Assembly (NCBI GenBank): GCA_947462495.1
Contig: CANHOY010000001.1
Location: 1-32,919, forward strand
Length of the DNA stretch: 32,919 nt
Reading direction: 5' to 3'
Source: Bacteroidota bacterium
GTDB taxonomy: Bacteria > Bacteroidota > Bacteroidia > Chitinophagales > Chitinophagaceae
The first letter of the stretch is position 1. Each line of letters begins with the position of its first letter. Positions 1 to 15,109 of the stretch are shown piece after piece. The notes under the pieces are model-generated. The model saw only the letters and a program-made list of their open reading frames with translations. It had not been told where the DNA came from and ran no database searches. Position numbers and translations under genes: made by a program.

Positions 1-1
1 G

Positions 2-232
2 CTTACTTATAAAAATGCAGGTGTGGCGGAAGCCATTAAAGACATTCCAATGGAGTGGTTGGTGTTAGAAACCGATGCGCCTTATTTAGCACCTGTTCCT
101 TTTCGGGGTAAAACCAATGAGCCTAGTTATATGATTCAGGTAGCGATGAAGTTGGCTGAAATTAAAAATATTCCTTTGCATGAAGTAGCGGAGAAAACTA
201 CGAAAAATGCGGAGGGGGTGTTTGGGATATAG
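2..232 (+). CDS. tatD: TatD family hydrolase/DNase, C-terminal part (5' truncated by window edge)
   Basis: Frame is open from base 2 (LTYKNAGVAEAIKDIP...). Contains the TatD C-terminal motif LETDAPYLAPVPFRGKTNEP and ends with the T.NA..F helix. Confidence 0.92.
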   Translation, partial: LTYKNAGVAEAIKDIPMEWLVLETDAPYLAPVPFRGKTNEPSYMIQVAMKLAEIKNIPLHEVAEKTTKNAEGVFGI

Positions 233-290: not shown

Positions 291-3200
291 TTATTTTTTC
301 TCTTCTATTAGTTTTTGAACTATTGCCTCTAAAGTTTTTAAACGTTCTTTTAGTTCAGTATTTTCTTTGCTTAATTCTTGAATAGATTTCACCACAACTG
401 GCAATAAATTACCATAAGTAGCTTCCCACTTATTGGGGTTTGACTTATAAACCAGTTTTAGCCAATCTGCATTGTATTTATTCTGCGCTTCATCCAATTC
501 CTGAGCAATAAAACCAGCGGTTTGTTCCTTGCTAATTTTACTTCCGTCAGATACCCCAGCTTTATACCATTCTCTTTTATCCCAATTAAATACTCTTGGT
601 TTTAGAGAGTTGATGAAGTTTAAGCCTACACTTAAGTCATTGATATTCTTTTTATCGCGTTGGTCGGATAAGGAAGTAATAGTAGTTACATTGGCTCTAA
701 TTACTGTATTTGAACTATTGCCTAATGTGATTTCGTCTGAAACAGAAGTGCCTGAAACTTGAGCATTGTAACCTATTGTAATATTGTTTGTTCCAGTAAT
801 TAAGGTATTACCAGCGGCATAACCTATAGCTACATTATAATTTCCTTCAGTGTTTTGTGTTAATGCTTGATAGCCTAAAGAAACGTTCCCAATTCCTATG
901 GTGTTTTTGTATGAAGCTAAAAGACCTAATGCAATATTTGAACCACCATGTGTATTATAAGTTAAAGCGCCATTCCCCATCGCAATATTAGTCGTTCCGT
1001 CAAGGTTATAATACATTGTATTATAACCAATTGCAATATTACTTGTTCCTTCAGTATTTTTATATAATGAGGCGTTTCCAATTGCAATATTTTGTAATCC
1101 TATTGTATTTTTATTCAAAGTGTATGAACCAATCCCTATATTATAATCACCGGTAGTGTTTTCAACTAAAGCGTTTGATCCAACAGCAATATTATTATAT
1201 CCTTCTGTATTTTTAGACAAGCTATTTGTTCCAATTGCAACTATATCGTCACCAATTGTGTTAGCTGATAATGTATTATAACCTAGAGCCGTATTGTTAT
1301 TTGCTATAGTATTATTTAAAAGTGATTGGTAGCCAACAGCAGTATTGTATCGACCAGTGTTATTAGCAGCAGTTGAACTTCCTTTTAAAGATTCATATCC
1401 AACAGCAGTATTACCAGTTGTTCTTCCGGTTGTTCTATCATCTGCATAATACATTGCCCTTGTTCCAATTGCAATTGAACCACTATTAGCCACATTGAAA
1501 TATAAAGACTGATAGCCAATTGATGTATTATCACTGCCAGTTGTATTATCTTTTAATGCATGAAAGCCTAAAGTTGAGTTATCATTTCCTTCAGTATTTG
1601 CACTAAGAGAATTCATACCTACACTAGTATTTCTGGCTCCAGTTGTATTAGCATTTAAAGCGCTCCATCCAATAGCAGTATTATCTCCATTCAAACTATT
1701 TTCTAAAGTTAGATGTCCAACCGCAGTATTATTGTTATATGTTGTATTAGCTTTCAAAGAATTTACACCAATAGCAACATTTCCCTGTCCAGTTGTGTTA
1801 GAATATAAAGCTGAAGATCCAATACCAATGTTATTATCGCCTGTTGTAATAGATTTTATACTTTGATATCCAATAGCAGTATTATTTAACCCAGTGTTAT
1901 TAGCAGCAGTTGTGCTGCCCATTAGTGATTCATACCCAACAGCTGTATTGCCTGTTGTTCTACCAGTGGATCTATCATCAGCATAATACATTGCATTGTG
2001 ACCTATTGCAGCTGATCCCGAGTTTGCTTTGTTTGAGAATAATGTATTTACCCCAATTGCAACATTACTTGTACCTGTAGTATTTTCATAAAGTGCTCCA
2101 TATCCATTTGCAACATTACTTGCACCTGTAGTATTTTGATATAAACTCCATTTACCAATTGCTGTGTTAAAAAATCCTGTGGTATTATAATATAGTGATG
2201 ATGATCCAATTGCTATGTTATTAATACCTGTGGTGTTACTAAATAGTGCTTGATATCCAAGCGTAATATTATGTCGCCCTGTGGTGTTGCTAAATAGTGC
2301 TTGATATCCAACTGCTGTATTTGAATAGCCTGTTGTATTTGAGAGTAATGCATCTTTCCCTATTGCTGTATTAGTAGTTACAGTAGGTGTTCCTGATCCA
2401 ATACCTACAGTAATTCCATTTACCTTTAAATCATAAGCACCTAAATCAACTGCTTGAGATGCACCAGTATACGGAACACCCGCTGTTACTGAAGTTGTAA
2501 CTGTTCCGTCTGCTCTTAAATATTGAGTTGATAAACCACCCGGAACTTTATAGCCAGCTGCAGTTATGTTACCACTTGTTTTTACATCTGTTATTGAAGT
2601 ATTTCCTAATTGAATAGTATTAGAAGCGGAGACGATTGCTAAGCTACCTATTGCAATTGCATTTGATAAGTTATTTGAAGAGGCATCACTATTATTACCA
2701 ATGAATAGATTTTGAGAACCTACTGTAATTACGCTACCAGCATCTCTACCAATTGCGTTATTTGAACTCCCAGTTGTTAAGCCAGATAAACTATAAACAC
2801 CCAGTGCGCTATTGCTACCACCTGATGTTAAATTTTTTAAAGCCCCCTCTCCAATTGCATTATTGTAATTCGAGCCTGCTGCATTAAAATTTAACATTGC
2901 CTGATGTCCTACAGCTACATTGGAACTTCCTATTATGTTTGATCTTAAAGCCTCATTCCCTAAGGCCACATTTACCCATCCAGTTGTATTTGCACTCAAA
3001 GCATCATTCCCAATTGATGTATTAGATGACCCAGTTGTATTTGCATTTAATGAATTATAACCAATTGAAGCATTATTTGAACCGGAAGTATTGCTGTATA
3101 ATGAATTTGTGCCAATAGCAACATTACTTGAACCACTAGTATTTAAGTATAAAGAACCGCCTCCAAATGAAGCATTATAATCTCCGGTAGTGTTTGCATT

Positions 3201-6200
3201 TAATGCTCCGGAACCCATTGCTGTATTGGAAGCGCCACTAGTATTAGCTTTCATTGATTCATTACCAAAAGCAGAATTATAATTCCCAGTAGTATTATAA
3301 TAAAGAGAATTATAACCAGCTGAAGTGTTGTTAGTACCTGTGATATTACTTTTTAATGCAAAACCGCCTAAGGCAATATTATAGTTGCCAGATGTATTAC
3401 TTGATAGTGAGTAATAACCCATTGCTGTATTATCACTTCCAGTAGTATTTGCACCTAAGCTATATACTCCATTTGCAGAATTCTGTGTACCTGTAGTATT
3501 TAAATGCATACTTCCAAAACCTATACTTGTATTACTAGCGCCTGTTGTATTTGAAGCCATACTTATATACCCAATTGCAGTATTATTATCACCAGTTTTA
3601 TTATTACTTAGTGCAGTTCTTCCAACTGCTGTATTATTAGAAGCAGTGGTATTTTGAGACAATGCATTATCACCAATAGCAGTATTATTTTCACCACTGG
3701 TATTATTATATAGTGAATAACCACCAACAGCTGTGTTAAAACTTGCAGTCGTATTGGAGGCTAAAGAACCTACTCCTATAGCAATATTTGATGCACCTGT
3801 TGTATTTTTTTCTAAAGCTTCAAAACCAATTGCAGTGTTGTTTGACCCCGTTTTATTTGAATATAAGGACTGAACACCTACTGCAGTATTTTGAGTACCT
3901 GAAGTATTAGATCCAAGAGATTCTTTTCCAATTGCTGTATTATTTGAACCTGTATTATTATAAGGAAGAGCTTTTGAACCAATTGCAGTATTTGAAAAGC
4001 CAGTTGTATTAAACCATAATGCAATATGACCAATTGCAGCATTATCATACCCTGTATTATTCGCACTCAATGCATTATAACCTTGAGCGGTATTATTGTA
4101 ACCTGAACTATTTCCAACCATTGCATTATGGCCAATAGCAACATTATTTGATCCAGTTGTATTATTATTAAGGGCAAAAGTACCAACTGCAGTGTTAAAG
4201 TTTCCAGTTAAATTTGTATAAAGTGACTTAAGTCCAATTGCAAGGTTATATGAACCAGTAGTATTTGAATAAAGTGCTTGATAACCAACTGCAACATTAC
4301 TTCCACCCAAAGTATTACTATACATTGCCTTTGAACCAACCGCGGTATTTCTACTTACTGTAGTTGAATTATATAGAGAACTATCTCCTATAGCAACGTT
4401 ATTATTGCCAGTTGTATTATTGAATAAGCTATATATACCAACTGCGACATTTGAATAACCCGATGTGTTTTGATTTAATGCTACAATACCAATTGCAGTA
4501 TTTGTAGAACCAGTGGTATTTCTAAAAAGTGATTTTGATCCAACAGCAATATTATAATATCCGGTTGAATTAGAATAAAGGGACTGGTAACCTTGAGCGG
4601 TATTAGAATAACCTTCAGTATTTCTATAAAGTGCTTGATAACCAATTGCAGTATTATCGTTAGCTGTTGTGTTAAAATAAAGGGAATGATCACCAACTGC
4701 AATGTTATTGTTACCTGTAGTATTTGAATAAAGAGATCTATTTCCAATTCCAGTATTTTTTTTACCTGTAGTATTTGAATAAAGAGACCTATTCCCAATC
4801 CCAGTATTATATAAGCCACTAGTATTTGAACGAAGTGCTAAACTACCAATTGCCATATTCCAAAAACCAGTTGAGTCGGTTGCTAGGTTGGAGTATAAAG
4901 AACTATCTCCAATTGCTATATTTCCAAATGTATCAGTTAGTATTCCAGATGAGCCACTACTTCCATTCAACTTCCCAGTCACAGTTAAATCTCCATTAAT
5001 AGTCACTTTCTTATTATCAAACTCACCATAAATTAAAGGAGTTTTTGTTTTATCGTTGGCGATAATTAATTTATTGCTTGTGTTTAGGAATATTGAATCA
5101 CTTGCAGCCTTGTATCCAAGTATAACATTACCACTTCCTCTTAAGTTAGTGGCAACTGCAGCACCTATAATAACATTCTTGCTTCCGTTGGAGGAAGTAT
5201 CGTATAGCATCTCTGTTCCTAGTATCACATTATCATCCCCATTGTAGTTCAATGCTGTATTGGCTCCAATAGATACGTTTCTACTTACATCATTGGCTAG
5301 TTTTAAATTATTAGCACCTATTGACACGTTCGTGCCTGCATTTTTTGCACTTTGTAATGCACTAGTTCCTAAAGCTACGTTTTGGCTGTACTGAACTGTT
5401 TTAGAGCCAACAGATCCTATTGAATTTTTTCCTGCTTCATACCCTACTAATACGTTTCCAGTAGCATCTGCTTTAGCGTTTTGCCCTGCATTATTCCCTA
5501 TGATTACATTTTGCATGGCGCCACCACTAGTTGTGGTTCCTAAAGTGGCACCACTCGCGGTACCAATTAAGATATTATCGTTATTGGAACTATTGTCTTT
5601 ATTCTTTATCAAACTACCACCTGCGCCATTACCTATTGCATAGTTATTTGCATTGGCAGCTAATGTATCCATGCCTTTTAAGGCATCATATCCAATGGCT
5701 AAACCATAGGGTGTTTTAGTTGCAGAATCTCTTATATATTTTATTACCCCCGATTTAATGCCTGCAAATTGGGCAACAATTTTGGAAAGAGAATCAATTT
5801 TAGGTATATAGATGGCGCCTCTATTATTATTTAATACAATACTATCTCCCTTTTGAGCAAGCTTAATAGTTGCTATATCTAATTTTAAACTATCTACACT
5901 AATACTTGCAGCCCCTGCATTATTGGCATATAAAGCATAAGGAACAGATAGTAGTTGAGAGGTCCCAACAAATACAAATGCAGTACCGCCATCTAAGTCT
6001 AGTTCCACTTTCATGTAGTAAGGAAACTTACTCCATTGAACATCTTCCATTTTACCTGTATTGGCTTGTCCATTTCCAATGATAACTGAGAATTGGCCGT
6101 AAGGATCTGTATTAACATTGTGTATTTCTTGATACTTAATTGTACCTAATTGCTGCAACTCAATTAGCCCAATTCTTAACGAGATTTTTTTACTAGCAAC

Positions 6201-6332
6201 AGGAGTTCCAGCATTAGTTAAGGCTACCCCTTGATAATTAAATCCAAGCGGTGCTTGTGCACTTATATTGCTAATTGATAAAATAGTGGCTACAATAAAT
6301 AAGCCAATAATTTTTTGAATATAGTTCCCCAT
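291..6332 (-). CDS. Giant exported tail-fibre-like protein A (2013 aa): signal peptide, conserved Bacteroidota N-terminal domain, 17-aa NxAxG repeats, C-terminal peptidase S74-type intramolecular chaperone
   Basis: Start placed at MGNYIQK (6332) by comparison with the two other module copies; an in-frame upstream ATG exists at 6353. SPI signal ends ISA|Q. N-domain QAPLGFNYQGVA...SQLLSVPYALYA. Dozens of NTAxGxxALxxNTTG units. C-terminal SDQRDKKNI...LKPRVFNW...GFIAQEL...coiled coil matches the chaperone-of-endosialidase (S74) pattern. Confidence 0.85.
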   Translation of the reverse strand: MGNYIQKIIGLFIVATILSISNISAQAPLGFNYQGVALTNAGTPVASKKISLRIGLIELQQLGTIKYQEIHNVNTDPYGQFSVIIGNGQANTGKMEDVQWSKFPYYMKVELDLDGGTAFVFVGTSQLLSVPYALYANNAGAASISVDSLKLDIATIKLAQKGDSIVLNNNRGAIYIPKIDSLSKIVAQFAGIKSGVIKYIRDSATKTPYGLAIGYDALKGMDTLAANANNYAIGNGAGGSLIKNKDNSSNNDNILIGTASGATLGTTTSGGAMQNVIIGNNAGQNAKADATGNVLVGYEAGKNSIGSVGSKTVQYSQNVALGTSALQSAKNAGTNVSIGANNLKLANDVSRNVSIGANTALNYNGDDNVILGTEMLYDTSSNGSKNVIIGAAVATNLRGSGNVILGYKAASDSIFLNTSNKLIIANDKTKTPLIYGEFDNKKVTINGDLTVTGKLNGSSGSSGILTDTFGNIAIGDSSLYSNLATDSTGFWNMAIGSLALRSNTSGLYNTGIGNRSLYSNTTGKKNTGIGNRSLYSNTTGNNNIAVGDHSLYFNTTANDNTAIGYQALYRNTEGYSNTAQGYQSLYSNSTGYYNIAVGSKSLFRNTTGSTNTAIGIVALNQNTSGYSNVAVGIYSLFNNTTGNNNVAIGDSSLYNSTTVSRNTAVGSKAMYSNTLGGSNVAVGYQALYSNTTGSYNLAIGLKSLYTNLTGNFNTAVGTFALNNNTTGSNNVAIGHNAMVGNSSGYNNTAQGYNALSANNTGYDNAAIGHIALWFNTTGFSNTAIGSKALPYNNTGSNNTAIGKESLGSNTSGTQNTAVGVQSLYSNKTGSNNTAIGFEALEKNTTGASNIAIGVGSLASNTTASFNTAVGGYSLYNNTSGENNTAIGDNALSQNTTASNNTAVGRTALSNNKTGDNNTAIGYISMASNTTGASNTSIGFGSMHLNTTGTQNSANGVYSLGANTTGSDNTAMGYYSLSSNTSGNYNIALGGFALKSNITGTNNTSAGYNSLYYNTTGNYNSAFGNESMKANTSGASNTAMGSGALNANTTGDYNASFGGGSLYLNTSGSSNVAIGTNSLYSNTSGSNNASIGYNSLNANTTGSSNTSIGNDALSANTTGWVNVALGNEALRSNIIGSSNVAVGHQAMLNFNAAGSNYNNAIGEGALKNLTSGGSNSALGVYSLSGLTTGSSNNAIGRDAGSVITVGSQNLFIGNNSDASSNNLSNAIAIGSLAIVSASNTIQLGNTSITDVKTSGNITAAGYKVPGGLSTQYLRADGTVTTSVTAGVPYTGASQAVDLGAYDLKVNGITVGIGSGTPTVTTNTAIGKDALLSNTTGYSNTAVGYQALFSNTTGRHNITLGYQALFSNTTGINNIAIGSSSLYYNTTGFFNTAIGKWSLYQNTTGASNVANGYGALYENTTGTSNVAIGVNTLFSNKANSGSAAIGHNAMYYADDRSTGRTTGNTAVGYESLMGSTTAANNTGLNNTAIGYQSIKSITTGDNNIGIGSSALYSNTTGQGNVAIGVNSLKANTTYNNNTAVGHLTLENSLNGDNTAIGWSALNANTTGARNTSVGMNSLSANTEGNDNSTLGFHALKDNTTGSDNTSIGYQSLYFNVANSGSIAIGTRAMYYADDRTTGRTTGNTAVGYESLKGSSTAANNTGRYNTAVGYQSLLNNTIANNNTALGYNTLSANTIGDDIVAIGTNSLSKNTEGYNNIAVGSNALVENTTGDYNIGIGSYTLNKNTIGLQNIAIGNASLYKNTEGTSNIAIGYNTMYYNLDGTTNIAMGNGALTYNTHGGSNIALGLLASYKNTIGIGNVSLGYQALTQNTEGNYNVAIGYAAGNTLITGTNNITIGYNAQVSGTSVSDEITLGNSSNTVIRANVTTITSLSDQRDKKNINDLSVGLNFINSLKPRVFNWDKREWYKAGVSDGSKISKEQTAGFIAQELDEAQNKYNADWLKLVYKSNPNKWEATYGNLLPVVVKSIQELSKENTELKERLKTLEAIVQKLIEEKK
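770..4930 (-). repeat. Intragenic 51-nt (17-aa) tandem repeat arrays, beta-roll/YadA-head-like
   Basis: Units such as NTAIGYQALYRNTEGYS and NTAQGYQSLYSNSTGYY are 17 aa long. Near-identical neighbours lie 51 nt apart (4711 vs 4762; 2227 vs 2278). Boundaries approximate. Confidence 0.9.
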
Positions 6333-6396
6333 AGAGATGATTTTTAAATTCATTTTAAGACAGCTAGATATAGCTGAATGGGGTAGGGCAAAGGTA
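6327..6396 (-). promoter_or_regulatory. Conserved promoter plus structured leader, copy A
   Basis: TACCTTTG -7 element (6396-6389), then CCCTACCCCATT, hairpin CAGCTA-TATC-TAGCTG (6376-6361), ATGA...TCAT and start ATGGGG. Homologous to 11151-11222 and 14159-14230. Confidence 0.8.
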
Positions 6397-6436
6397 AATT
6401 GATATTATGAAAAAGGACAATTTATCTCGCTACCCC

Positions 6437-7357
6437 TTATAGCTTCACAATCTTAAACGTGTAGGTCATTTTAAAGTCGGTAGAATAAACTCTTACGATG
6501 TAAATACCTGAGGCTAAATTAGCTATATCTAGGTTGGTACCGGAATATAGGTTCTTTCTATTGGCTACTATCCTTCCTGTACTAAAATCAAAAATATCGG
6601 CATTTAAGGTGTTGTATTTAATTAAGAAGAAGTTCAAGTATAAATTGGATACATAAGGATTAGGCATCACTTTTATAAACTGATTGTCCTCCAAATTAAT
6701 AATGTCTGTTACTAAGAAGAAATAAGAGGAACCTTTTAAACTAGCACAACCATTTTGCACTGTGGTAACTGTGTAAGAGGCATTTACAAGTGGCTTGTAT
6801 TTAACATCCGTAGCGCCTGCTATAGCTACTCCATCTTTATACCATTGATTGCCTGTACTGTAATTTGAGGTTAAATTACCTACACTATCTCTAACAATAG
6901 TTGGAGTTGGAGGTTTTTGGAAAGCACTCTTTGTTATGATTATTTGCCTGGAGGAATCATAATGTCCTAATCCATCTGTGTAGGCTATTTTATAAACTCC
7001 AGTATCTTTTTGAGTAAGTTTAATTAATGAAGTGTCTTTTGCTTTTATAGCAGTATCGTTTTTAAACCAAGTATAAAAAGGAGAACTATTTGCCTTGATA
7101 ATGGTGGTATCATCAGGACAAATACTTAAGTCTCCAATTATAGCTACACTGGTATCTAACATGATACGAAGTGGTTGCTGAAAACCAACAGTTATTTTAT
7201 TCGTACCTGAGCTAAAATTTCCTGCCATATATTGACCCACTGAAAAGTTTACGTTAGGGCTAGTAAAACCTACAGAGTTGATGGAACCACGTTTGATGGT
7301 TTGGGCATTTAATTGTCCTAAAACAAAGAATGATAATATAAAAAGTAGTTTTTTCAT
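6437..7357 (-). CDS. T9SS type A sorting (CTD) domain protein with N-terminal FSVGQ...GFQQP segment and Ig-like domains
   Basis: Signal peptide LNA|Q. Ig-like YTWFKN and QWYKDGVAIAGAT motifs. C-terminal KVMPNP...DIANLASGIYIVRV...TFKIVK is a typical type A CTD. Confidence 0.85.
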   Translation of the reverse strand: MKKLLFILSFFVLGQLNAQTIKRGSINSVGFTSPNVNFSVGQYMAGNFSSGTNKITVGFQQPLRIMLDTSVAIIGDLSICPDDTTIIKANSSPFYTWFKNDTAIKAKDTSLIKLTQKDTGVYKIAYTDGLGHYDSSRQIIITKSAFQKPPTPTIVRDSVGNLTSNYSTGNQWYKDGVAIAGATDVKYKPLVNASYTVTTVQNGCASLKGSSYFFLVTDIINLEDNQFIKVMPNPYVSNLYLNFFLIKYNTLNADIFDFSTGRIVANRKNLYSGTNLDIANLASGIYIVRVYSTDFKMTYTFKIVKL

Positions 7358-7377
7358 TTAATTTAAATTTTCCACAA

Positions 7378-10300
7378 TTAATTATTACCTACGATAATCC
7401 AATTTGACCCATCACTAACCACTTTTACATATTTATATTGTGAACTTAAAGCATATGTAGTTGATCCATCAATAGTTTGCGATGATGTTGTAGCAGCTGT
7501 AACATCATTTCCGCCGGAATTAATTCTTTTGATTGTATAAGTTTGCCCAACTACTCCAATAGCCGTTGGTAGTGTAATTGTTATAGGGGCTGAGGTGGCA
7601 TTAGCGAGAATAATTTCATCTGAAGACAAGGCAGAGTAGGCTGAAGTTTTAGAAACTAAATTAGAAATTATACCATTAGATTTAAAAGTACCACTTGTGT
7701 TGACATTAGTTATTGAAGTATTCCCTAATTGAATTGAGTTAGAAGCTGAAACTATTGTACCTGCTCCAATTGCAATTGCATTTGATAAAGCACTACTCGA
7801 AACATCAGCAACATTACCAATAGCAATGTTATCATTTCCAGTTATGTTGGTTTGTAAACTTGCCATTCCAAGTGCTACATTTCCATTACCAGTTGTATTT
7901 CCCACTAAAGTTGACATTCCAATTCCAGTATTATTAATTCCTGTTGTGTTATTTGGAATTGCGCCATAACCAATTGCAGTATTATCACCACCAGTAGTAT
8001 TTGCAAATAGTGCCCCACTTCCATTTACTGTATTGTAAGAACCTGTTGTATTAGAGGTGAGAGAATTTCTACCAATTGCAGTGTTTAATTCTCCAGTTGT
8101 ATTTGCATTAAGGGCGCCGTGTCCTAAAGCCGAATTGTTTGAACCTGTAGTGTTTGATAGCATACTTTGATAACCCATTGCTGTATTGTTTGCACCTGTA
8201 GTATTACTGTATAAACTACCTGCCCCATTTGCAGTATTTGAATACCCAGTGGTATTTGCATATAGGGCTTGGCTTCCGATAGCGGTATTGAAAATACCAG
8301 AAGTGTTGGCATTTAGTGTTTTGTATCCAAGAGCAGTATTTTCATACCCAGTTGTGTTTGTATTCATACTTGCATAACCAATACTAGTATTATTAGCACC
8401 CGTTGTATTGCTATACAAAGCAGTATATCCAATCCCTACATTGCCCTCAGCAGTTGTATTTTGGTTTAATGCTCTATCTCCAACAGCAACATTTCCAGTG
8501 GCAGTAGTGTTTTTAGTTAATGACTCTCTGCCAATAGCAACATTCGCTGCACCTGTTGTATTTTCATATAATGCACCTTGACCAACAGCAACATTGACAT
8601 AACCAGTTGTATTTTTCCTTAATGCTTGAGTTCCAATTGCAGTATTCCAGCTTCCAGTTGTTGTTGTTTCTAATGAATTATTACCAATAGCAGTGTTATA
8701 TGATGCAGTAGTATTTTTTGTTAGAGCACCACTCCCAAAAGCACTATTATCATTACCAGTTGTGTTATTACCCATGGTGCCATTACCAAAAGCATTATTT
8801 CTTACACCACCAGTATTGTATTGCAAAGCTAAAATACCAAAAGCTGAATTCTCAGTACCTGTTGTATTATAACTCATTGATCTAAATCCAACTGCAGTAT
8901 TATTATTTCCTGTTGTTGAGCGTTTTAATACACTATCGCCAATGCCTATATTTTGAATTCCTGTGGTATTTGAAATCATAACATCGGAACCTAAAATTGT
9001 ATTATTATAACCTCCAATAGGTATAAAAGTCACATTTGAACCAATTAATTTTCCAGTCACGGTCAATTCTCCATTTATTTTTAACTTCTTATTGTCAAAC
9101 TCTCCATAAATTAAAGGAGTTCTTGAGTTGTCATTATGAATAACTAATCTATTACTTATATTTTAAAATCTTCATTTGCCCCAGCTGAATTTCCAATAAA
9201 TATATTTTTATCACCAGTTTCTAAAAGTCCACCAGCATTATATCCCAAAGCCAAATTATAACTACCTGATGTATCAGATGTCAAGGCATTTACTCCAAAT
9301 GCAGAATTATAATTTCCGATTTTATTTGATAATAAAGACGTTCTTCCAAATCCACTATTCATAATGCCTTTAGTATTTGCGTTTAATGCATAATTTCCAA
9401 ATGCAGAATTTCTATGTCCTGTTGTATTATTTGAGAGAGTATAAGCGCCAAAAGCATTATTACAACAACCAGTTTCATTTAGTTTTAAAGCATCTATTCC
9501 AATCGCATTATTTTGAGTAGCCGCATTTTTTGTTAATGTTGATGAGCCTATACCAATACTATTATTCGCATTTTTACTATTAATTAATGCCTTGGATCCA
9601 ATTGCAATATTATTCCAACCGCTGTCAATTAAAAATAAAGAACTATCTCCAATTGCAATATTATTCTGACCAAATTCAGTTATTGAATTATCTTCTTTAA
9701 TAAATTTTAAGCTGTTTTTTTGCAACCTTATGTTATTTGTATCGATAATAAACATTGTATATATAGAATCTGGATTTATTTGTGTTCCGCTTGTTTTACC
9801 TGTTACAATCAAATCCCCATTAATAGTTACCTTCTTATTATCAAACTCTCCATAAATAAGAGGCGTCTTAGTTTTATTATTTGCAATGATTAATTTATTG
9901 CTCGTATTTAGGAATATCGAATCGCTTGCTGCTTTATAACCTAATATAACATTTCCACTTCCCCTTAAGTTGGTTGCAACAGCAGCCCCTATAATAACAT
10001 TCTTGCTTCCGTTGGAGGAAGTATCAGTAAGCATTTGAGAACCAATGATAATATTATCGTCACCATTATAATCGGGTGCCATATTATTTCCAATAGTAAC
10101 ATTTCTATTTACTTGCTTTGATCTATTAAAATTCTCAGAGCCAATTGCAACATTTGATTCTGCAGCTATTGCATATTGCATAGACCTACTTCCAATTGCA
10201 ACATTTTGATTAAATACAGGAGTAAGTGAACCTAATGTGCCATATGAAAATCTACCAGCTTCATGTCCTATTATAATATTATTTGCAGCCATTCCATTCA

Positions 10301-11156
10301 TATATTGTCCAGTATAATTCCCTAGCATAATATTTTGATTTGCTCCTCTTCCTGTTGATGAACCGATTCCCCAGCCAGATGCATTACCAATAAAAACATT
10401 ATCGTTATTATAGTTAGCATCAGAAAATTTTGGTAATAAAGCTCCTGCACTTTGGCCTATGGCAATATTTGCACTATTGGTAGCTACACTATCAAATAAG
10501 GCTAAAGCGTCATATCCAACTGCAATACCAGTTGGAATTTTAGAAGCAGAATCTTTAATGTATTTTAAAGTACCTGCTTTTATTCCAGCTAATTGTGCTA
10601 CAATTTTTGTAAGCGAATCAATTTTAGGGATATAAATTGCACCTCTATTATTGTTTAATATAATACTATCTCCTTTTTGTGTTAACTTAATTGTGCTTAA
10701 TATATTCTTAATGCTATCCACTCCAACGGAAGCAGCTCCTGCATTATTTGCATATAAAGCATAAGGGACAGATAAAAGTTGTGATGTTCCTACAAATACA
10801 AAGGCAGTACCTCCTGTTAAATCAAGCTCCACTTTCATATAATAGGGGAATAAACTCCATTGAACATCTGTCATTTTACCAGTAACAGCTTGACCATTAC
10901 CAATGATAACAGAGAATTGTCCATATGGATCGGTATTTACATTGTGTATTTCTTGATACCTAACTGAACCCAATTGTTGTGATTCTATTAAAGCAATTCT
11001 TAAAGAAATTACTTTACTAGCTATTGGTGTTCCAGCATTGGTTAAGGCTACCCCTTGATAATTAAATCCAAGTGGCGCTTGTGCACTTATATTGCTGATT
11101 GATAAAATAGCGGCTACAATAAATAAGCCAATAATTTTTTGAATATAGTTCCCCAT
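7378..11156 (-). pseudogene. Frameshifted paralogue B of the giant fibre protein (ORFs 9156-11156 and 7378-9066 form one gene; 1259 aa if repaired)
   Basis: The first ~450 aa parallel protein A. Adding one A to the minus-strand A4 run (+ strand T 9161-9164) gives DFKNISNRLVIHNDNSRTPLIYGEFDNKKLKINGELTVTGK, in frame with the second ORF and matching the neck motif seen at two other places. Could be a true mutation or an assembly indel. Confidence 0.85.
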
Positions 11157-11222
11157 AGAAATGATTTTTAAATTTCATTTTAAGACAGTTATAATTAACT
11201 GAATGGGGGTAGGGTAAAGGTA
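11151..11222 (-). promoter_or_regulatory. Conserved promoter plus structured leader, copy B
   Basis: TACCTTTA (11222-11215), CCCTACCCCCATT, hairpin CAGTTA-ATTA-TAACTG (11201-11186), AAATGA...TCATTT, start ATGGGG. Confidence 0.8.
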
Positions 11223-11392
11223 GCCTTAAAGATTAATAAACTATATTATTTAATAAGGTGAAATGGTATAAATTTTATTTTCTTTGAGAATGTGCGTATT
11301 GATTCTCAATAAGATAGAGAATATTGACTGGTTTTACTTAGAAATACATTTTGAATTTGCCATAGGTTGAAAACCAGGGGCTTATTATTTAA

Positions 11393-11959
11393 TCATCTAA
11401 AAAAGAAACCAGTTACTTTTTTAGGGCTATAAGTACTAATTGTTAAAGTAAAATATTCACTCATTATTTTTTCGCCCCCGAAAATTATATTTTGTTGTTT
11501 TATGCGTGCTAAATTTGCAAAATATTTATCAACTACTGTGAATCTATAAGTAATTGAATTATTATATTTATTGATATCGACTTTTATTTTATCCAGACTT
11601 ATTGATTTCAATTGATTATACATGGATTCAAAAATCGTAGAATCAATGAAATATTCAATTACAGTATTAGAAGCCCCGTATTTTTTTGATGTATGAAACT
11701 TAGATAATTTCCGAACAAATGGAGTTATTCTAAAATTTATATCTATATTTTGGTTTGATTGAAATGCCCATAATGCAATACCTTCATTGCTTTTATTATA
11801 GTTTCGATTTACTAGGAAATATTTTTTTGAGTTTAAAAAAATATTTAAAGAATCAATACTTTCAGTTTTGAATACTGTTTCCATCTCAGTTAGACTTAAT
11901 TGCTGCGCTTTGGTTTGTATAACTCCCAAAATAAGTAGGGTAGATAAAATCCATCTCAT
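11393..11959 (-). CDS. Hypothetical exported protein (188 aa)
   Basis: Signal peptide MRWILSTLLILGVIQTKA|Q. Starts 12 nt after the upstream stop. No family recognised. Confidence 0.65.
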   Translation of the reverse strand: MRWILSTLLILGVIQTKAQQLSLTEMETVFKTESIDSLNIFLNSKKYFLVNRNYNKSNEGIALWAFQSNQNIDINFRITPFVRKLSKFHTSKKYGASNTVIEYFIDSTIFESMYNQLKSISLDKIKVDINKYNNSITYRFTVVDKYFANLARIKQQNIIFGGEKIMSEYFTLTISTYSPKKVTGFFFR

Positions 11960-11971
11960 AAATCGATATTT

Positions 11972-12928
11972 TTAAGAATTTCTGCTATTTTTTAAATTAT
12001 TTGGACTTTTTGGAGATTCGGAGATTTTCAAATAAGCACGATTTTTTTTATTTTTTTTTGCCACTCCCTTTCCTTCTATGAAAATAGTGAAATTTTTAAA
12101 CTCATAGGAATAGGAAGAATTTGCAATAGGCTGATTTGTATAAGAAAATGCCGCGTATAGGTTGGCATCTTTTAATGGGAACTTATATCTTAAACCTAAA
12201 TTATATCCTAATGTATTTGATTGAAAATCGGAATATCCTTGGAAGTAATTACTACCTGTTCTATAATATCCACCTGAATTATGAAAGAAAAATTGATAAG
12301 AAGGGCCAACGGTAAACAAGTCGGGCATAAAAAATAAATCTTTCGGCTTTTCTTTAAATAACTTAAAAATTAAACCGCCATTCAAATCTAGTATGGTTAT
12401 ATTATTTAAATTTGATTCGGAATTATTTGTATTTGTCCCAATAATTATTGAATTAGAGATAAACAAATTAACTCTATCATTTAATTTTAATGTCGAACCC
12501 AGGCCTAAGCTAAAAGCATTTTGAGTCAACATTGGATATTCCTCATTTTGATTACCGTTTTTAATTATTGTTCCTAGCTTTGTTATACCCATTGACAAAT
12601 TAAAGTCCATTCCTTGCCCAATTTTATAACTTTTGACTGAATCATTTTTATTAATGATATTTTTGGAAGTATCAATTTTCGTTAATTGCTCATCGTAAAA
12701 ATTGTCTTTAGTTCCATTTTTATATGTTATAGACTTTAGGTCTTTTATTAATATGGTATAAATGGGGCCATTTAAATTTTCAAACTTTCTGTATTTTACT
12801 TCTGAAAGCGTTACTTCTAAAACTTTAGAGGGTACTTCTTCTCCAGATTTTTTTATTAATATATCTTGTGAGTATAAGCTGCTATTTAAAAAATAAGAAA
12901 TTAGAATTAGTATAATTATTTTTTTCAT
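11972..12928 (-). CDS. Exported protein: small conserved N-terminal domain plus probable outer-membrane beta-barrel
   Basis: Signal peptide ...LYS|Q. N-domain QDILIKKSGEEV..KVLEV..EVKYRK...GP..I.YKNG. C-terminal amphipathic strands (FSLGLGSTL, LGYNLGLRYKF, LYAAFSY). Confidence 0.7.
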   Translation of the reverse strand: MKKIIILILISYFLNSSLYSQDILIKKSGEEVPSKVLEVTLSEVKYRKFENLNGPIYTILIKDLKSITYKNGTKDNFYDEQLTKIDTSKNIINKNDSVKSYKIGQGMDFNLSMGITKLGTIIKNGNQNEEYPMLTQNAFSLGLGSTLKLNDRVNLFISNSIIIGTNTNNSESNLNNITILDLNGGLIFKLFKEKPKDLFFMPDLFTVGPSYQFFFHNSGGYYRTGSNYFQGYSDFQSNTLGYNLGLRYKFPLKDANLYAAFSYTNQPIANSSYSYEFKNFTIFIEGKGVAKKNKKNRAYLKISESPKSPNNLKNSRNS

Positions 12929-12987
12929 TCTTTTGACTTTTTAATCTTTCTTAGACAAACTTTTTAAGGGGGGAGATAATCTATCTA

Positions 12988-13566
12988 TTAATTACCAGCG
13001 TTGCTTTGTCCAATTAGAAATAATACTATTGCTAAATTAAAGCCGGTTCCGAGCAAAAACTTATTATAAATTTTCTTTTTTCTTATTTTAATAGCCATTT
13101 GCTTGTAACCATTTTTATATTCTGTATTATTAATAAGTGCCTTATTTAAATAGTTTAAATTTTCATCTTTTATTTCTTTATTACTTTCAATTGCGGCGGC
13201 TATTCCGCCTACTAAAGGTGTTAATAAGGAGGTTGTAGTGAGTACTAATGATTCATCTGATTTAGGCACGTAATAAAATTTTGATGCATCTAATTGGCCT
13301 TGTTCAAAATTTGAAATACTTGGAGTGTCTTGTGTAAATAAGTCTTTTGATCCATTTTCGTATCGGATGATTAAAACATCTTTTATTAGCAAAGAATAAA
13401 TAGGACCTTCTAAGTTCTCAAATTTTTTATACTTTATTTCGGAAAGGGTGACCTCAGTTACTTTAGCTTTTATATCTTCCCCGTTCTTTTTTGTAATTAA
13501 GTCCTGTCCAAAAGATAAAATTGACATACAGGATAATGCCCAAGCAGTAAAAAATATTTTTTTCAT
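12988..13566 (-). CDS. Exported/membrane hypothetical protein sharing its N-terminal domain with 11972-12928
   Basis: Likely start MKKIFF at 13566, 1 nt after the porin-family gene stop. N-domain QDLITKKNGEDIKAKVTEV...IRYENG. Hydrophobic C-terminal helices. Confidence 0.72.
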   Translation of the reverse strand: MKKIFFTAWALSCMSILSFGQDLITKKNGEDIKAKVTEVTLSEIKYKKFENLEGPIYSLLIKDVLIIRYENGSKDLFTQDTPSISNFEQGQLDASKFYYVPKSDESLVLTTTSLLTPLVGGIAAAIESNKEIKDENLNYLNKALINNTEYKNGYKQMAIKIRKKKIYNKFLLGTGFNLAIVLFLIGQSNAGN

Positions 13567-13567
13567 T

Positions 13568-14164
13568 TTAAAAAGCATAACTTAATACAACGCTTAAAGA
13601 ATTATTTTTAATGGTTGAGTTTAGCCCGGTACCTTGGAATGCAATAGTACTAGTACTACTCATGATATTTGATAAGCCGTATCCATATCTAAATCCTGCA
13701 TGTATTTTTTCAGTTAGTTTAATGCCGCCTCCAAATACAAATTGGATATCGGTTGTTTTAAAATTAGTCTTTTTTACTGCCGTATCAGATTTTGAGCTGG
13801 CTCCTAATAAGAGTCCAAATTGTGGTCCTGCCTCTACATATAGAATATCGGTCAATGCAAATTTAAATAATAGTGGAATGCTTATATAGCTTAGATCGAT
13901 ACTATCTGCCATAGTTCCCATTACTTGATATAATATTTCAGGTTGAATTGATACACTTTCATTAAGCTCATAATTTAAAAAGCCACCCACGACATATTTT
14001 GTTGACTTTGAGGTATTAACATCAAGCCCATTTAATGATATTTTCCAGGAAGGATAATTAACACCCCCTTTTAAACCAAAAGTAGTTTGAGCTTGTATTT
14101 GACTTGTTGATAATAAAGTCGCAATTAGAATTAAGCCTAATATTTTTTGAATATAATTCCCCAT
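13568..14164 (-). CDS. Porin-family / small outer-membrane beta-barrel protein (OMP_b-brl_2/PorT-like)
   Basis: FGLKGGVN, SIQPEILY, LSYISIPLLFKF, VEAGPQFGLLL and RYGYGLSNI motifs, plus a terminal YAF BAM signal. Confidence 0.85.
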   Translation of the reverse strand: MGNYIQKILGLILIATLLSTSQIQAQTTFGLKGGVNYPSWKISLNGLDVNTSKSTKYVVGGFLNYELNESVSIQPEILYQVMGTMADSIDLSYISIPLLFKFALTDILYVEAGPQFGLLLGASSKSDTAVKKTNFKTTDIQFVFGGGIKLTEKIHAGFRYGYGLSNIMSSTSTIAFQGTGLNSTIKNNSLSVVLSYAF

Positions 14165-14230
14165 ACAAATGATTTTTAAAATTCATTTTTAGACAGTTAG
14201 AATTAACTGAATGGGGGTAGGGTAAAGGTA
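14159..14230 (-). promoter_or_regulatory. Conserved promoter plus structured leader, copy C
   Basis: TACCTTTA (14230-14223), CCCTACCCCCATT, hairpin CAGTTA-ATTC-TAACTG (14209-14194), AAATGA...TCATTT, start ATGGGG. Confidence 0.8.
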
Positions 14231-14285
14231 CAGCTGTTATATTAATCTTTATCTTAATTTTTGTACTTATTTGGGTGTTGGAGGA

Positions 14286-14411
14286 GGGATGCCGGAGCTT
14301 TGCTCCGGCATCCCGGGGGTCTGAAAATAACAAGCGCAACGCATCGAGTGCTTTCCGGATTGCCGTCGCTTTGCTCCGGCATCCCGGGGGTCTGAAAATA
14401 AAAAGCGCAAC
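14286..14411. repeat. GC-rich REP-like element: 13-bp perfect hairpin overlapping the first of two 44-nt direct repeats
   Basis: GGGATGCCGGAGC-TTT-GCTCCGGCATCCC (14286-14314). Direct repeats at 14297-14340 and 14368-14411 differ by one base and are separated by 27 nt. Confidence 0.75.
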
Positions 14412-14491
14412 CCAGAGCGCGCTTCGCGCCCTCGTGTTTTTAATTCATCCACTTCAATCTCGAAACAAGTTTCGGATCTCGTGGCTAAATT

Positions 14492-14521
14492 AAAAACCCA
14501 CCCCGTGTTCCGGGGTGGGTT
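14492..14521 (-). terminator. Rho-independent terminator of tRNA-Ser
   Basis: 11-bp stem AACCCACCCCG / CGGGGTGGGTT with a 5-nt loop, running into a T-run on the minus strand. Lies 15 nt downstream of the tRNA. Confidence 0.8.
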
Positions 14522-14536
14522 GCTCTTTCTATTTTG

Positions 14537-14621
14537 CAGAGAGGAAGGGATTCGAACCCCCGATACGTTGCCGTATACACGCTTTCCAAGCGTGCTCCTT
14601 AAACCACTCGGACACCTCTCT
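14537..14621 (-). tRNA. tRNA-Ser (anticodon GGA), CCA not encoded
   Basis: AGAGAGG acceptor stem, D-arm CCGAGTGGTTTAAGG, anticodon arm CACGC-TTGGAAA-GCGTG, long variable arm ATACG-GCAA-CGTAT, T-loop GTTCGAATC, discriminator G. A TAACTTCG -7-like element lies just upstream. Confidence 0.97.
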
Positions 14622-14665
14622 ATTAGGGCAGCGAAGTTAAAATAAATACTTGAGTTTATTGGCCT

Positions 14666-15109
14666 TTAATGCTCTTTTCTATTATGATCCATTCGCTCAT
14701 TGTATTCCAAAGGCTCGTTTTTCCAATTTTTATTATAAGAGACAAACCATCCTAACCAGATGGATCTGGATAATCGCATAATTAAAGGTTGTGTAAAAAG
14801 TAACAATACGATGGCCGTACCCATCCAATAAAATATTCTATTGTCGTCCAAATCAAAAGTCATACCTATCAATACCTTCCATGCCACAAAAGTGGATACA
14901 AAATAAGCCACCGTTAAAGCATAACTCACATAGCCTGTTCCATAATAAAATCCCAATTCTATTTCGGTTGGTTGCCCACACACTGGACACCTTTCATTCA
15001 TTTTAGTAATGGCAGATAAGTCGTATGGATTGCTGGATACAAATAATTTTCCTTCTCTACACCTTGGACATTTGTTGTTTAGGGTGCTCCACAAATAATT
15101 TTTCGGCAT
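14666..15109 (-). CDS. DUF983 family membrane protein
   Basis: KCPRCREGKLF...CPVCG...E.GFYYG..YVSYAL, two TM helices, RLSRSIW. Confidence 0.85.
   Translation of the reverse strand: MPKNYLWSTLNNKCPRCREGKLFVSSNPYDLSAITKMNERCPVCGQPTEIELGFYYGTGYVSYALTVAYFVSTFVAWKVLIGMTFDLDDNRIFYWMGTAIVLLLFTQPLIMRLSRSIWLGWFVSYNKNWKNEPLEYNERMDHNRKEH

Follow-up and report, generated by a model that had tools for sequence, protein, structure and literature searches.

In an integron, a Pc promoter beside the recombination site expresses variable cargo. In Borrelia burgdorferi, the erp genes with their upstream homology box carry one promoter, leader and export sequence on many unrelated mature proteins, an arrangement produced by natural recombination on mobile DNA; as set out in the cited sections of the source, these genes sit at a single allelic site of cp32 prophages and have a known operator, and their products are without exception lipoproteins that keep a conserved leader and five sorting residues (PMC10016077). 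Here we describe a comparable layout in a 32,919-nucleotide stretch of contig CANHOY010000001.1 (the whole stretch is referred to as the window) from a freshwater Sediminibacterium-like bacterium, the assembly of which is 74% complete. Three homologous copies (A, B and C) of a module of about 140 bases, all on the minus strand, each head a gene for a predicted surface protein. An earlier note on this DNA had named no described system that matched the module; the erp genes share its design, and the surprise is limited by the fact that this design is already known from Borrelia. The conserved core of the module is a -7 box with a leader hairpin, and not the signal peptide, which is its least constant part.

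The copies lie at 6258–6396 (A), 11082–11222 (B) and 14090–14230 (C), and their positions, homology and translations, as first reported in the earlier note, were confirmed by direct inspection of the sequence, by BLAST and by a covariance model. Each consists of a -7 box (6389–6396, 11215–11222 and 14223–14230 for A, B and C, respectively), a leader with a hairpin (6361–6376, 11186–11201 and 14194–14209) and a start codon (6330–6332, 11154–11156 and 14162–14164), which in A opens a signal peptide of 25 aa. When copy C was compared with the assembly by BLAST, B (E 7e-37) and A (E 7e-28) were recovered, and the next match had an E of 0.005 over 19 bases; the covariance model returned the same three copies and nothing else below E 0.6. 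By BLAST, nhmmer and the covariance model, A, B and C are thus the only copies in the 74%-complete assembly. Identity over the 66 columns of promoter and leader was 57 for A/B, 62 for B/C and 56 for A/C. Because A and B are paralogues, their homology continues far beyond the A-Q (AQ) cleavage site that ends the signal peptide.

The box, TAnnTTYR with free middle bases, was present in all 18 aligned copies from the window and its relatives (exact TAnnTTTG in 10), and matches the -7 box consensus of the Bacteroidetes sigma-A factor as given in the cited part of PMC9723704. Shortly after the inferred start of transcription comes a hairpin of six pairs, in which 96% of cells are paired and four of the six pairs have changed on both sides; none of 500 shuffles reached covariation as high. 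One-sided changes across 17 copies amounted to 7 G-U cells, no A-C cells and 2 other mismatches, a pattern that, on few independent events, favours an RNA stem over a DNA operator. The hairpin is kept in the divergent copies G146 and G260a/b (relatives are given by our own handles). Judged from these features, box and leader are predicted to form a housekeeping-type promoter with a hairpin leader, and the hairpin likely acts in the mRNA, through stability or translation. A second, A/U stem is weaker (81% paired). A three-way fold that places the 5' end of the leader on the start codon was predicted for A, B and C (z about -2) and is not conserved; it was rejected as a shared mechanism because only 70% of cells are paired, with no compensation. 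Searching positions 5900–14700 against Rfam gave tRNA only, plus one overlap on the tRNA at E 0.35, and no curated cis-regulatory family; a sigma-70 scan, the model of which does not cover this promoter type, found 80 sites against 75 expected.

A total of 21 copies, one of them weak, were collected: 19 in 14 genomes of the genus and two on other contigs, namely L009 and L035, the latter a 3-kb contig labelled Ignavibacteria with genes matching those of G069. A one-mismatch pattern matched 12 of 281 genus genomes, with two control matches in other genomes; one of the pattern matches (G120) is left out of the copy count. An exact pattern scan of 185,579 species genomes yielded 10 loci; the two copies of G260, the weak one of G261 and that of G146 came from covariance searches. 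The G261 copy at 163647 is counted as weak and left out of the G-U count, its hairpin being broken. No copy was found by the covariance model, under strict filters, in 150 genomes of the family beyond the genus sample, and viral contigs gave no exact match to the module pattern and no confirmed relative of the fibres described below. Candidates in G055, G032, G152 and G162, together with a first match in G261, were dropped as short A/T-rich or coding matches, and one in G020 as lying inside a coding sequence.

Behind this leader stand at least 11 types of unrelated first genes: the fibre, the C barrel and a second barrel family, a lipoprotein of 137 aa, an RCC1-repeat protein interrupted by an insertion sequence (IS), four different large proteins (G210, G211, G260a and G261; three with type IX-type ends), a small type IX cargo, proteins of 2327 and 195 aa, a stub and a CxxC protein of 150 aa (G146) with no evident signal peptide. 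The proposal of the earlier note that the piece is reused before unrelated cargo is therefore supported, and the module is not confined to fibre paralogues. Its further claim that the signal peptide is an obligatory part is not supported: related N-termini occur in only four cargo families, one of them a lipoprotein family, and one cargo lacks an evident signal peptide altogether. The module had also been said to start every transcription unit of the island. The sequence fits: within 130 bases of eight tested island ORF starts there are five TAnnTTYR matches, of which three are the module boxes and two lie within upstream coding sequence. At the same time, the scan for terminator-like sites gave none ahead of A or B, so that read-through into these genes is possible.

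Nor is the junction fixed after AQ, as had been supposed; break points are scattered from the -7 box to the cleavage site. The junction falls right after the -7 box in G012 (before a gene that we take to be AraC-like), after the hairpin in G213a (which now begins with what is the second gene in the G069/L035 cassette, the first having likely been deleted), late in the leader in G211 and G072, at the ATG in G012a, G136, G213b and G146, and mid signal peptide, after about 13 codons, in the lipoprotein shared by G069 and L035, which has the same start as fibres P0016–18. In copy C the junction is at AQ, and its likeness to the other copies does not end cleanly there, having already dropped to 34 of 54 bases in codons 9–26. 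Ends in AQ are also common among unrelated signal peptides. Copy B is itself a recombinant, with a C-like leader and an A-like signal peptide: seven leader sites agree with C and two with A, against none with C and 20 with A in the signal peptide (Fisher p 2e-5). One contig of metagenome run X4 has C-like coding sequence fused in register to a B-like leader (14178 to 11170), with 33 bases on the short side; this joint could be a circle junction, or as easily another allele.

The fusion of signal peptide and barrel in C is old and real. Metagenome contig L009, with core genes only 71% identical to those of the window, has a C operon of 96% identity; in G066 the operon is 95% identical. Contigs spanning the signal-peptide/barrel junction were found in runs X1 (which may be the source sample), X3, X4, X9, X10 and X11, from four studies, and the MG/EN/K-type signal peptide is kept in all seven close barrel homologues (67–99% identity) and in none of four distant ones (33–37%). 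A one-off chimera or misassembly, which the earlier note had held open, is ruled out by the two other genomes, the contigs of four studies and the seven close homologues. Among 103 matches to the fibre, 12 are close (63–92% identity); most of these 12 have a related N-terminus, six under the strict N-terminal pattern, and their C-terminal domains are very different. Homologues P0022 and P0023 have clearly different signal peptides.

Most outside copies sit beside tRNA attachment (att) sites. Tandem cassettes follow tRNA-Lys(TTT) in G012, G069 and G211 and, judged by 3'-end repeats, also in G210, G213 and G215, and run along a tRNA-Asp-type repeat in G002; the units are separated by a tRNA 3' end, a hairpin and arm-like motifs, and where the tRNA is on the contig the cargo of the Lys and Asp arrays faces it. 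No intact integrase was seen in the arrays of the relatives (no PF00589 match in those of G012 and G069), with the exception of G136; the G002 array retains an integrase C-terminal stub in one unit. After removal of C orthologues and G215, there remained 15 non-redundant outside copies, 10 of them directly behind an att junction or arm, two more inside tRNA-Lys islands, and one (G136) behind the integrase and a presumed small HTH-like gene. The abrupt end of homology at the -7 box, reported in the earlier note, is seen within the window; in many of the outside copies homology extends about 200 bases further upstream and runs straight into att sequence.

Several further observations concern these arrays. 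The tRNA-Lys cassettes lie at G012:C1:486900-510100, G069:C5, G210:C144, G211:C7 and C91, and G213:C141, and parts of the tRNA-Lys att block or its tRNA-side hairpin match 52 of the 281 genus genomes. The G002 array (G002:C25:30000-51822; L012, L013) is made up of lipoprotein genes and type IX cargo genes that stand singly, and a tRNA-Asp 3' repeat with arm motifs precedes four of them; most share a second leader family and an MK[KR]VI-type signal peptide, and one is cut by an IS that we take to be IS21-like. In the genome of the window itself, tRNA-Asp arm sequence at G000:C39:1-1300 is followed by one convergent lipoprotein-like gene.

We consider it fairly probable that the module is a cassette-end promoter with a hairpin leader, and on some copies the start of a signal peptide, that has been reused for new surface genes by ordinary recombination. 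The piece would have arisen at the inner end of gene cassettes that insert at tRNA genes. Integrative elements at tRNA 3' ends may have lost their integrase, so that cassettes flanked by att sites remained, with a promoter pointing inwards; another gene could then come to lie behind the module through deletion, or through recombination for which the shared 5' piece provides the anchor, and fusions inside the signal peptide would survive because export signals tolerate change. Neighbouring copies may exchange sequence, as in B, and the tRNA-Ser island of the window, which has no clear att site, would move between species by replacement through flanking core genes. Promoter activity, the role of the hairpin and the direction of origin are what we infer here.

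A number of points weigh against this account. The cassette-end-first direction is presumptive, since the window's copies lack a clear att site, most att junctions lack the module, and the copies of G072 and G260b (two of the 15) have no att context. Even in module-bearing genomes the module follows only 6 of 15 core repeats, and in 17 further loci, 16 of them from genomes without a known copy, it follows 1 of 21 arm matches; with most att junctions lacking it, the module is one leader among several at cassette ends. The att profile was trained on seven att-bearing copies, and the scores of those copies are therefore by construction. In the window's island, the search for a tRNA 3' repeat matched only tRNA-Ser itself, the att profile had no match in the window, where a weak arm-like stretch occurs only before B, and the reading direction of the window's copies, away from the tRNA, differs from that of the Lys and Asp cassettes. 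The controls on hairpin covariation carry no correction for kinship. Upstream of copy B, a palindrome at 11298–11310 (minus strand) is a possible, weak remnant of a decayed attachment arm: a score as high arose in 1 of 200 shuffles, nhmmer gave no match in the window, and an exact related motif occurs seven times on other contigs.

The same conservation could reflect a regulatory leader kept by selection, in which case the hairpin would serve as operator or RNA switch for the joint regulation of surface genes, and the link to att would be incidental, because such genes reside in islands. Here the first 150 aligned bases of A and B are telling, with 42, 49 and 46 identities per 50 against 21 of 49 matching fourfold sites in the mature domain, as are the survival of the hairpin in divergent copies and the presence in some arrays of the presumed AraC-like and small HTH-like genes. 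However, no regulator is common to all loci and none occurs in the window's island, upstream homology leads straight into att sequence in many copies, and G-U changes without A-C changes speak against a double-stranded operator; we regard this explanation as rather unlikely in its own right, and selection on the leader is in any case compatible with a cassette-end origin, with which it overlaps. A dedicated cassette system, with a site-specific enzyme that attaches cargo at one fixed position behind the signal peptide, would account for the many unrelated cargoes, for likenesses that in several cases end near A-Q or S-Q, and for the X4 joint. It seems very unlikely, given scattered break points, a C fusion old enough to be kept in homologues down to 67% identity, the frequency of A-Q ends in unrelated signal peptides and the equally ready reading of X4 as another allele. 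The co-occurring recombinase that the earlier note had suggested did not appear: the island has none, the window's contig has no PF00589 match, and the assembly holds only two tyrosine recombinases, of 311–320 aa.

Plain duplication of a fibre gene, with a single chimera or assembly error for C, agrees with the paralogy of A and B and with the related N-termini of the close fibre homologues. As a full account it is refuted by the outside copies, and we find it hardly credible: C recurs in G066, in L009 and on contigs from four studies, at least nine further unrelated genes stand behind the leader, and the fibres of G260 and G206 have no module match upstream. Returning to the cassette-end promoter, a bolder form of it, which we hold to be quite unlikely, is that the att-linked promoter and hairpin leader would serve as an expression socket, carried on integrase-less cassettes by streamlined lake Bacteroidota, with the hairpin as a recombination hot spot for grafting in new surface genes and switching them within populations. 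If true, the socket would amount to an integron turned inside out, with which the cell surface could be rebuilt against phages or grazers.

The three copies sit in a 14-kb island between tRNA-Ser(GGA) (14536–14621, minus strand, followed by a terminator-like hairpin at 14495–14521) and the convergent 3' end (1–232, plus strand) of a gene that, from its sequence, we take to be tatD; the metagenome runs that hold the island are freshwater. All island genes are on the minus strand. Copy C heads an operon at 11393–14164, with the 198-aa outer-membrane barrel (13568–14164; PF13568, PF13505) and proteins of 196, 318 (weak barrel match) and 188 aa. Copy B heads a fibre paralogue (7378–11156), split by a frameshift near 9160 into ORFs 9156–11156 and 7378–9066, and a 306-aa protein (6437–7357) with a type IX secretion C-terminal sorting domain, a homologue of which also follows a fibre gene in G260. 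The frameshift falls in an A/T-rich stretch (9150–9175) that no listed contig piece covers, and may be natural or an assembly error. Copy A heads a 2013-aa repeat fibre (291–6332) with a C-terminal S74 chaperone domain (PF13884, E 1e-8) and a further in-frame ATG at 6353, within the leader. Both fibres (291–6332 and 9156–11156) have 17-residue repeats. A small type IX cargo gene adjoins fibre genes in several genomes (6437–7357 in the window; G012, G213, G260) and could be a surface anchor or partner; the N-terminus of B has a weak match, below cut-off, to the Bdellovibrio mosaic adhesive trimer model NF053851. Nested inverted repeats with a duplicated unit occupy 14286–14429, between copy C and the tRNA; the number of units varies among G066, L009 and G206.

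The border itself varies across the genus. tRNA-Ser(GGA) lies between a DUF983 gene and tatD in both orientations (14536–14621 in the window; L132–L139); the orientation of the window is shared by G066, L009, G002 and G206 and comes with a shared hairpin-rich tail of 250 bases, and 8 of 10 genomes compared have the opposite one. The flanks of L009 are about 85–90% like G012, a genome with the opposite orientation and without the island. The island of L009, in contrast, is 96% like that of the window, and over its final 60 bases the tatD of L009 also resembles that of the window (52 versus 39 of 60); this points to allelic replacement of the island. In G066 the island stops after three genes and in L009 after four; both lack the intact hairpin that follows gene A, and they are probably shortened forms.

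If this account is right, surface genes newly acquired by small-genome lake bacteria can be expressed immediately, because promoter and leader come with the cassette end, and several export routes are served by a single leader. Such cassettes could also be found with the module as a sequence marker and with its hairpin, an unlisted RNA motif; the module further points to integrase-less tRNA arrays in the genus of which we found no published description; a search of the literature on the genus and phylum, with subscription papers and supplements largely outside its coverage, returned no relevant account of such a layout.

Compared with described systems, the module differs from an integron in that its promoter travels inside each unit and the island has no integrase gene; no recombinase was found in the island and no cassette-end element among the listed repeats, no attC model having been run. 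As with CIMEs and tandem accretion at att sites, described in the cited sections of PMC5704250, the relatives' units lack an integrase, are bounded by tRNA 3'-end att remnants and in one case keep an integrase stub; unlike them, the window's island has no recognisable att repeat, and the shared promoter-leader on the cargo is a feature of the present case. As in additive and replacement flexible genomic islands (PMC7771536, in the part cited), partial tRNA repeats mark cassettes and whole islands may be exchanged between species by double crossover, as L009 suggests. Tycheposon arrays (10.1101/2020.12.28.424599) and Dehalococcoides ssrA islands (PMC3146451) are likewise described in the cited parts as cassettes with partial tRNA repeats, and tycheposons and many ssrA islands carry integration genes, unlike the arrays here; the cited texts on flexible islands, tycheposons and ssrA islands make, in those parts, no mention of a common leader. 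With the erp genes the module shares conserved promoter-leader DNA before unrelated mature domains and recombination among members, as in the mosaic copy B. The likeness is one of design, with no claim of sequence homology or of membership in the erp family: in the present system the signal peptide is optional, the cargo comprises barrels, fibres, type IX cargo, a lipoprotein and, in G146, a protein with no evident signal peptide rather than lipoproteins throughout, and the sites are chromosomal tRNA islands.

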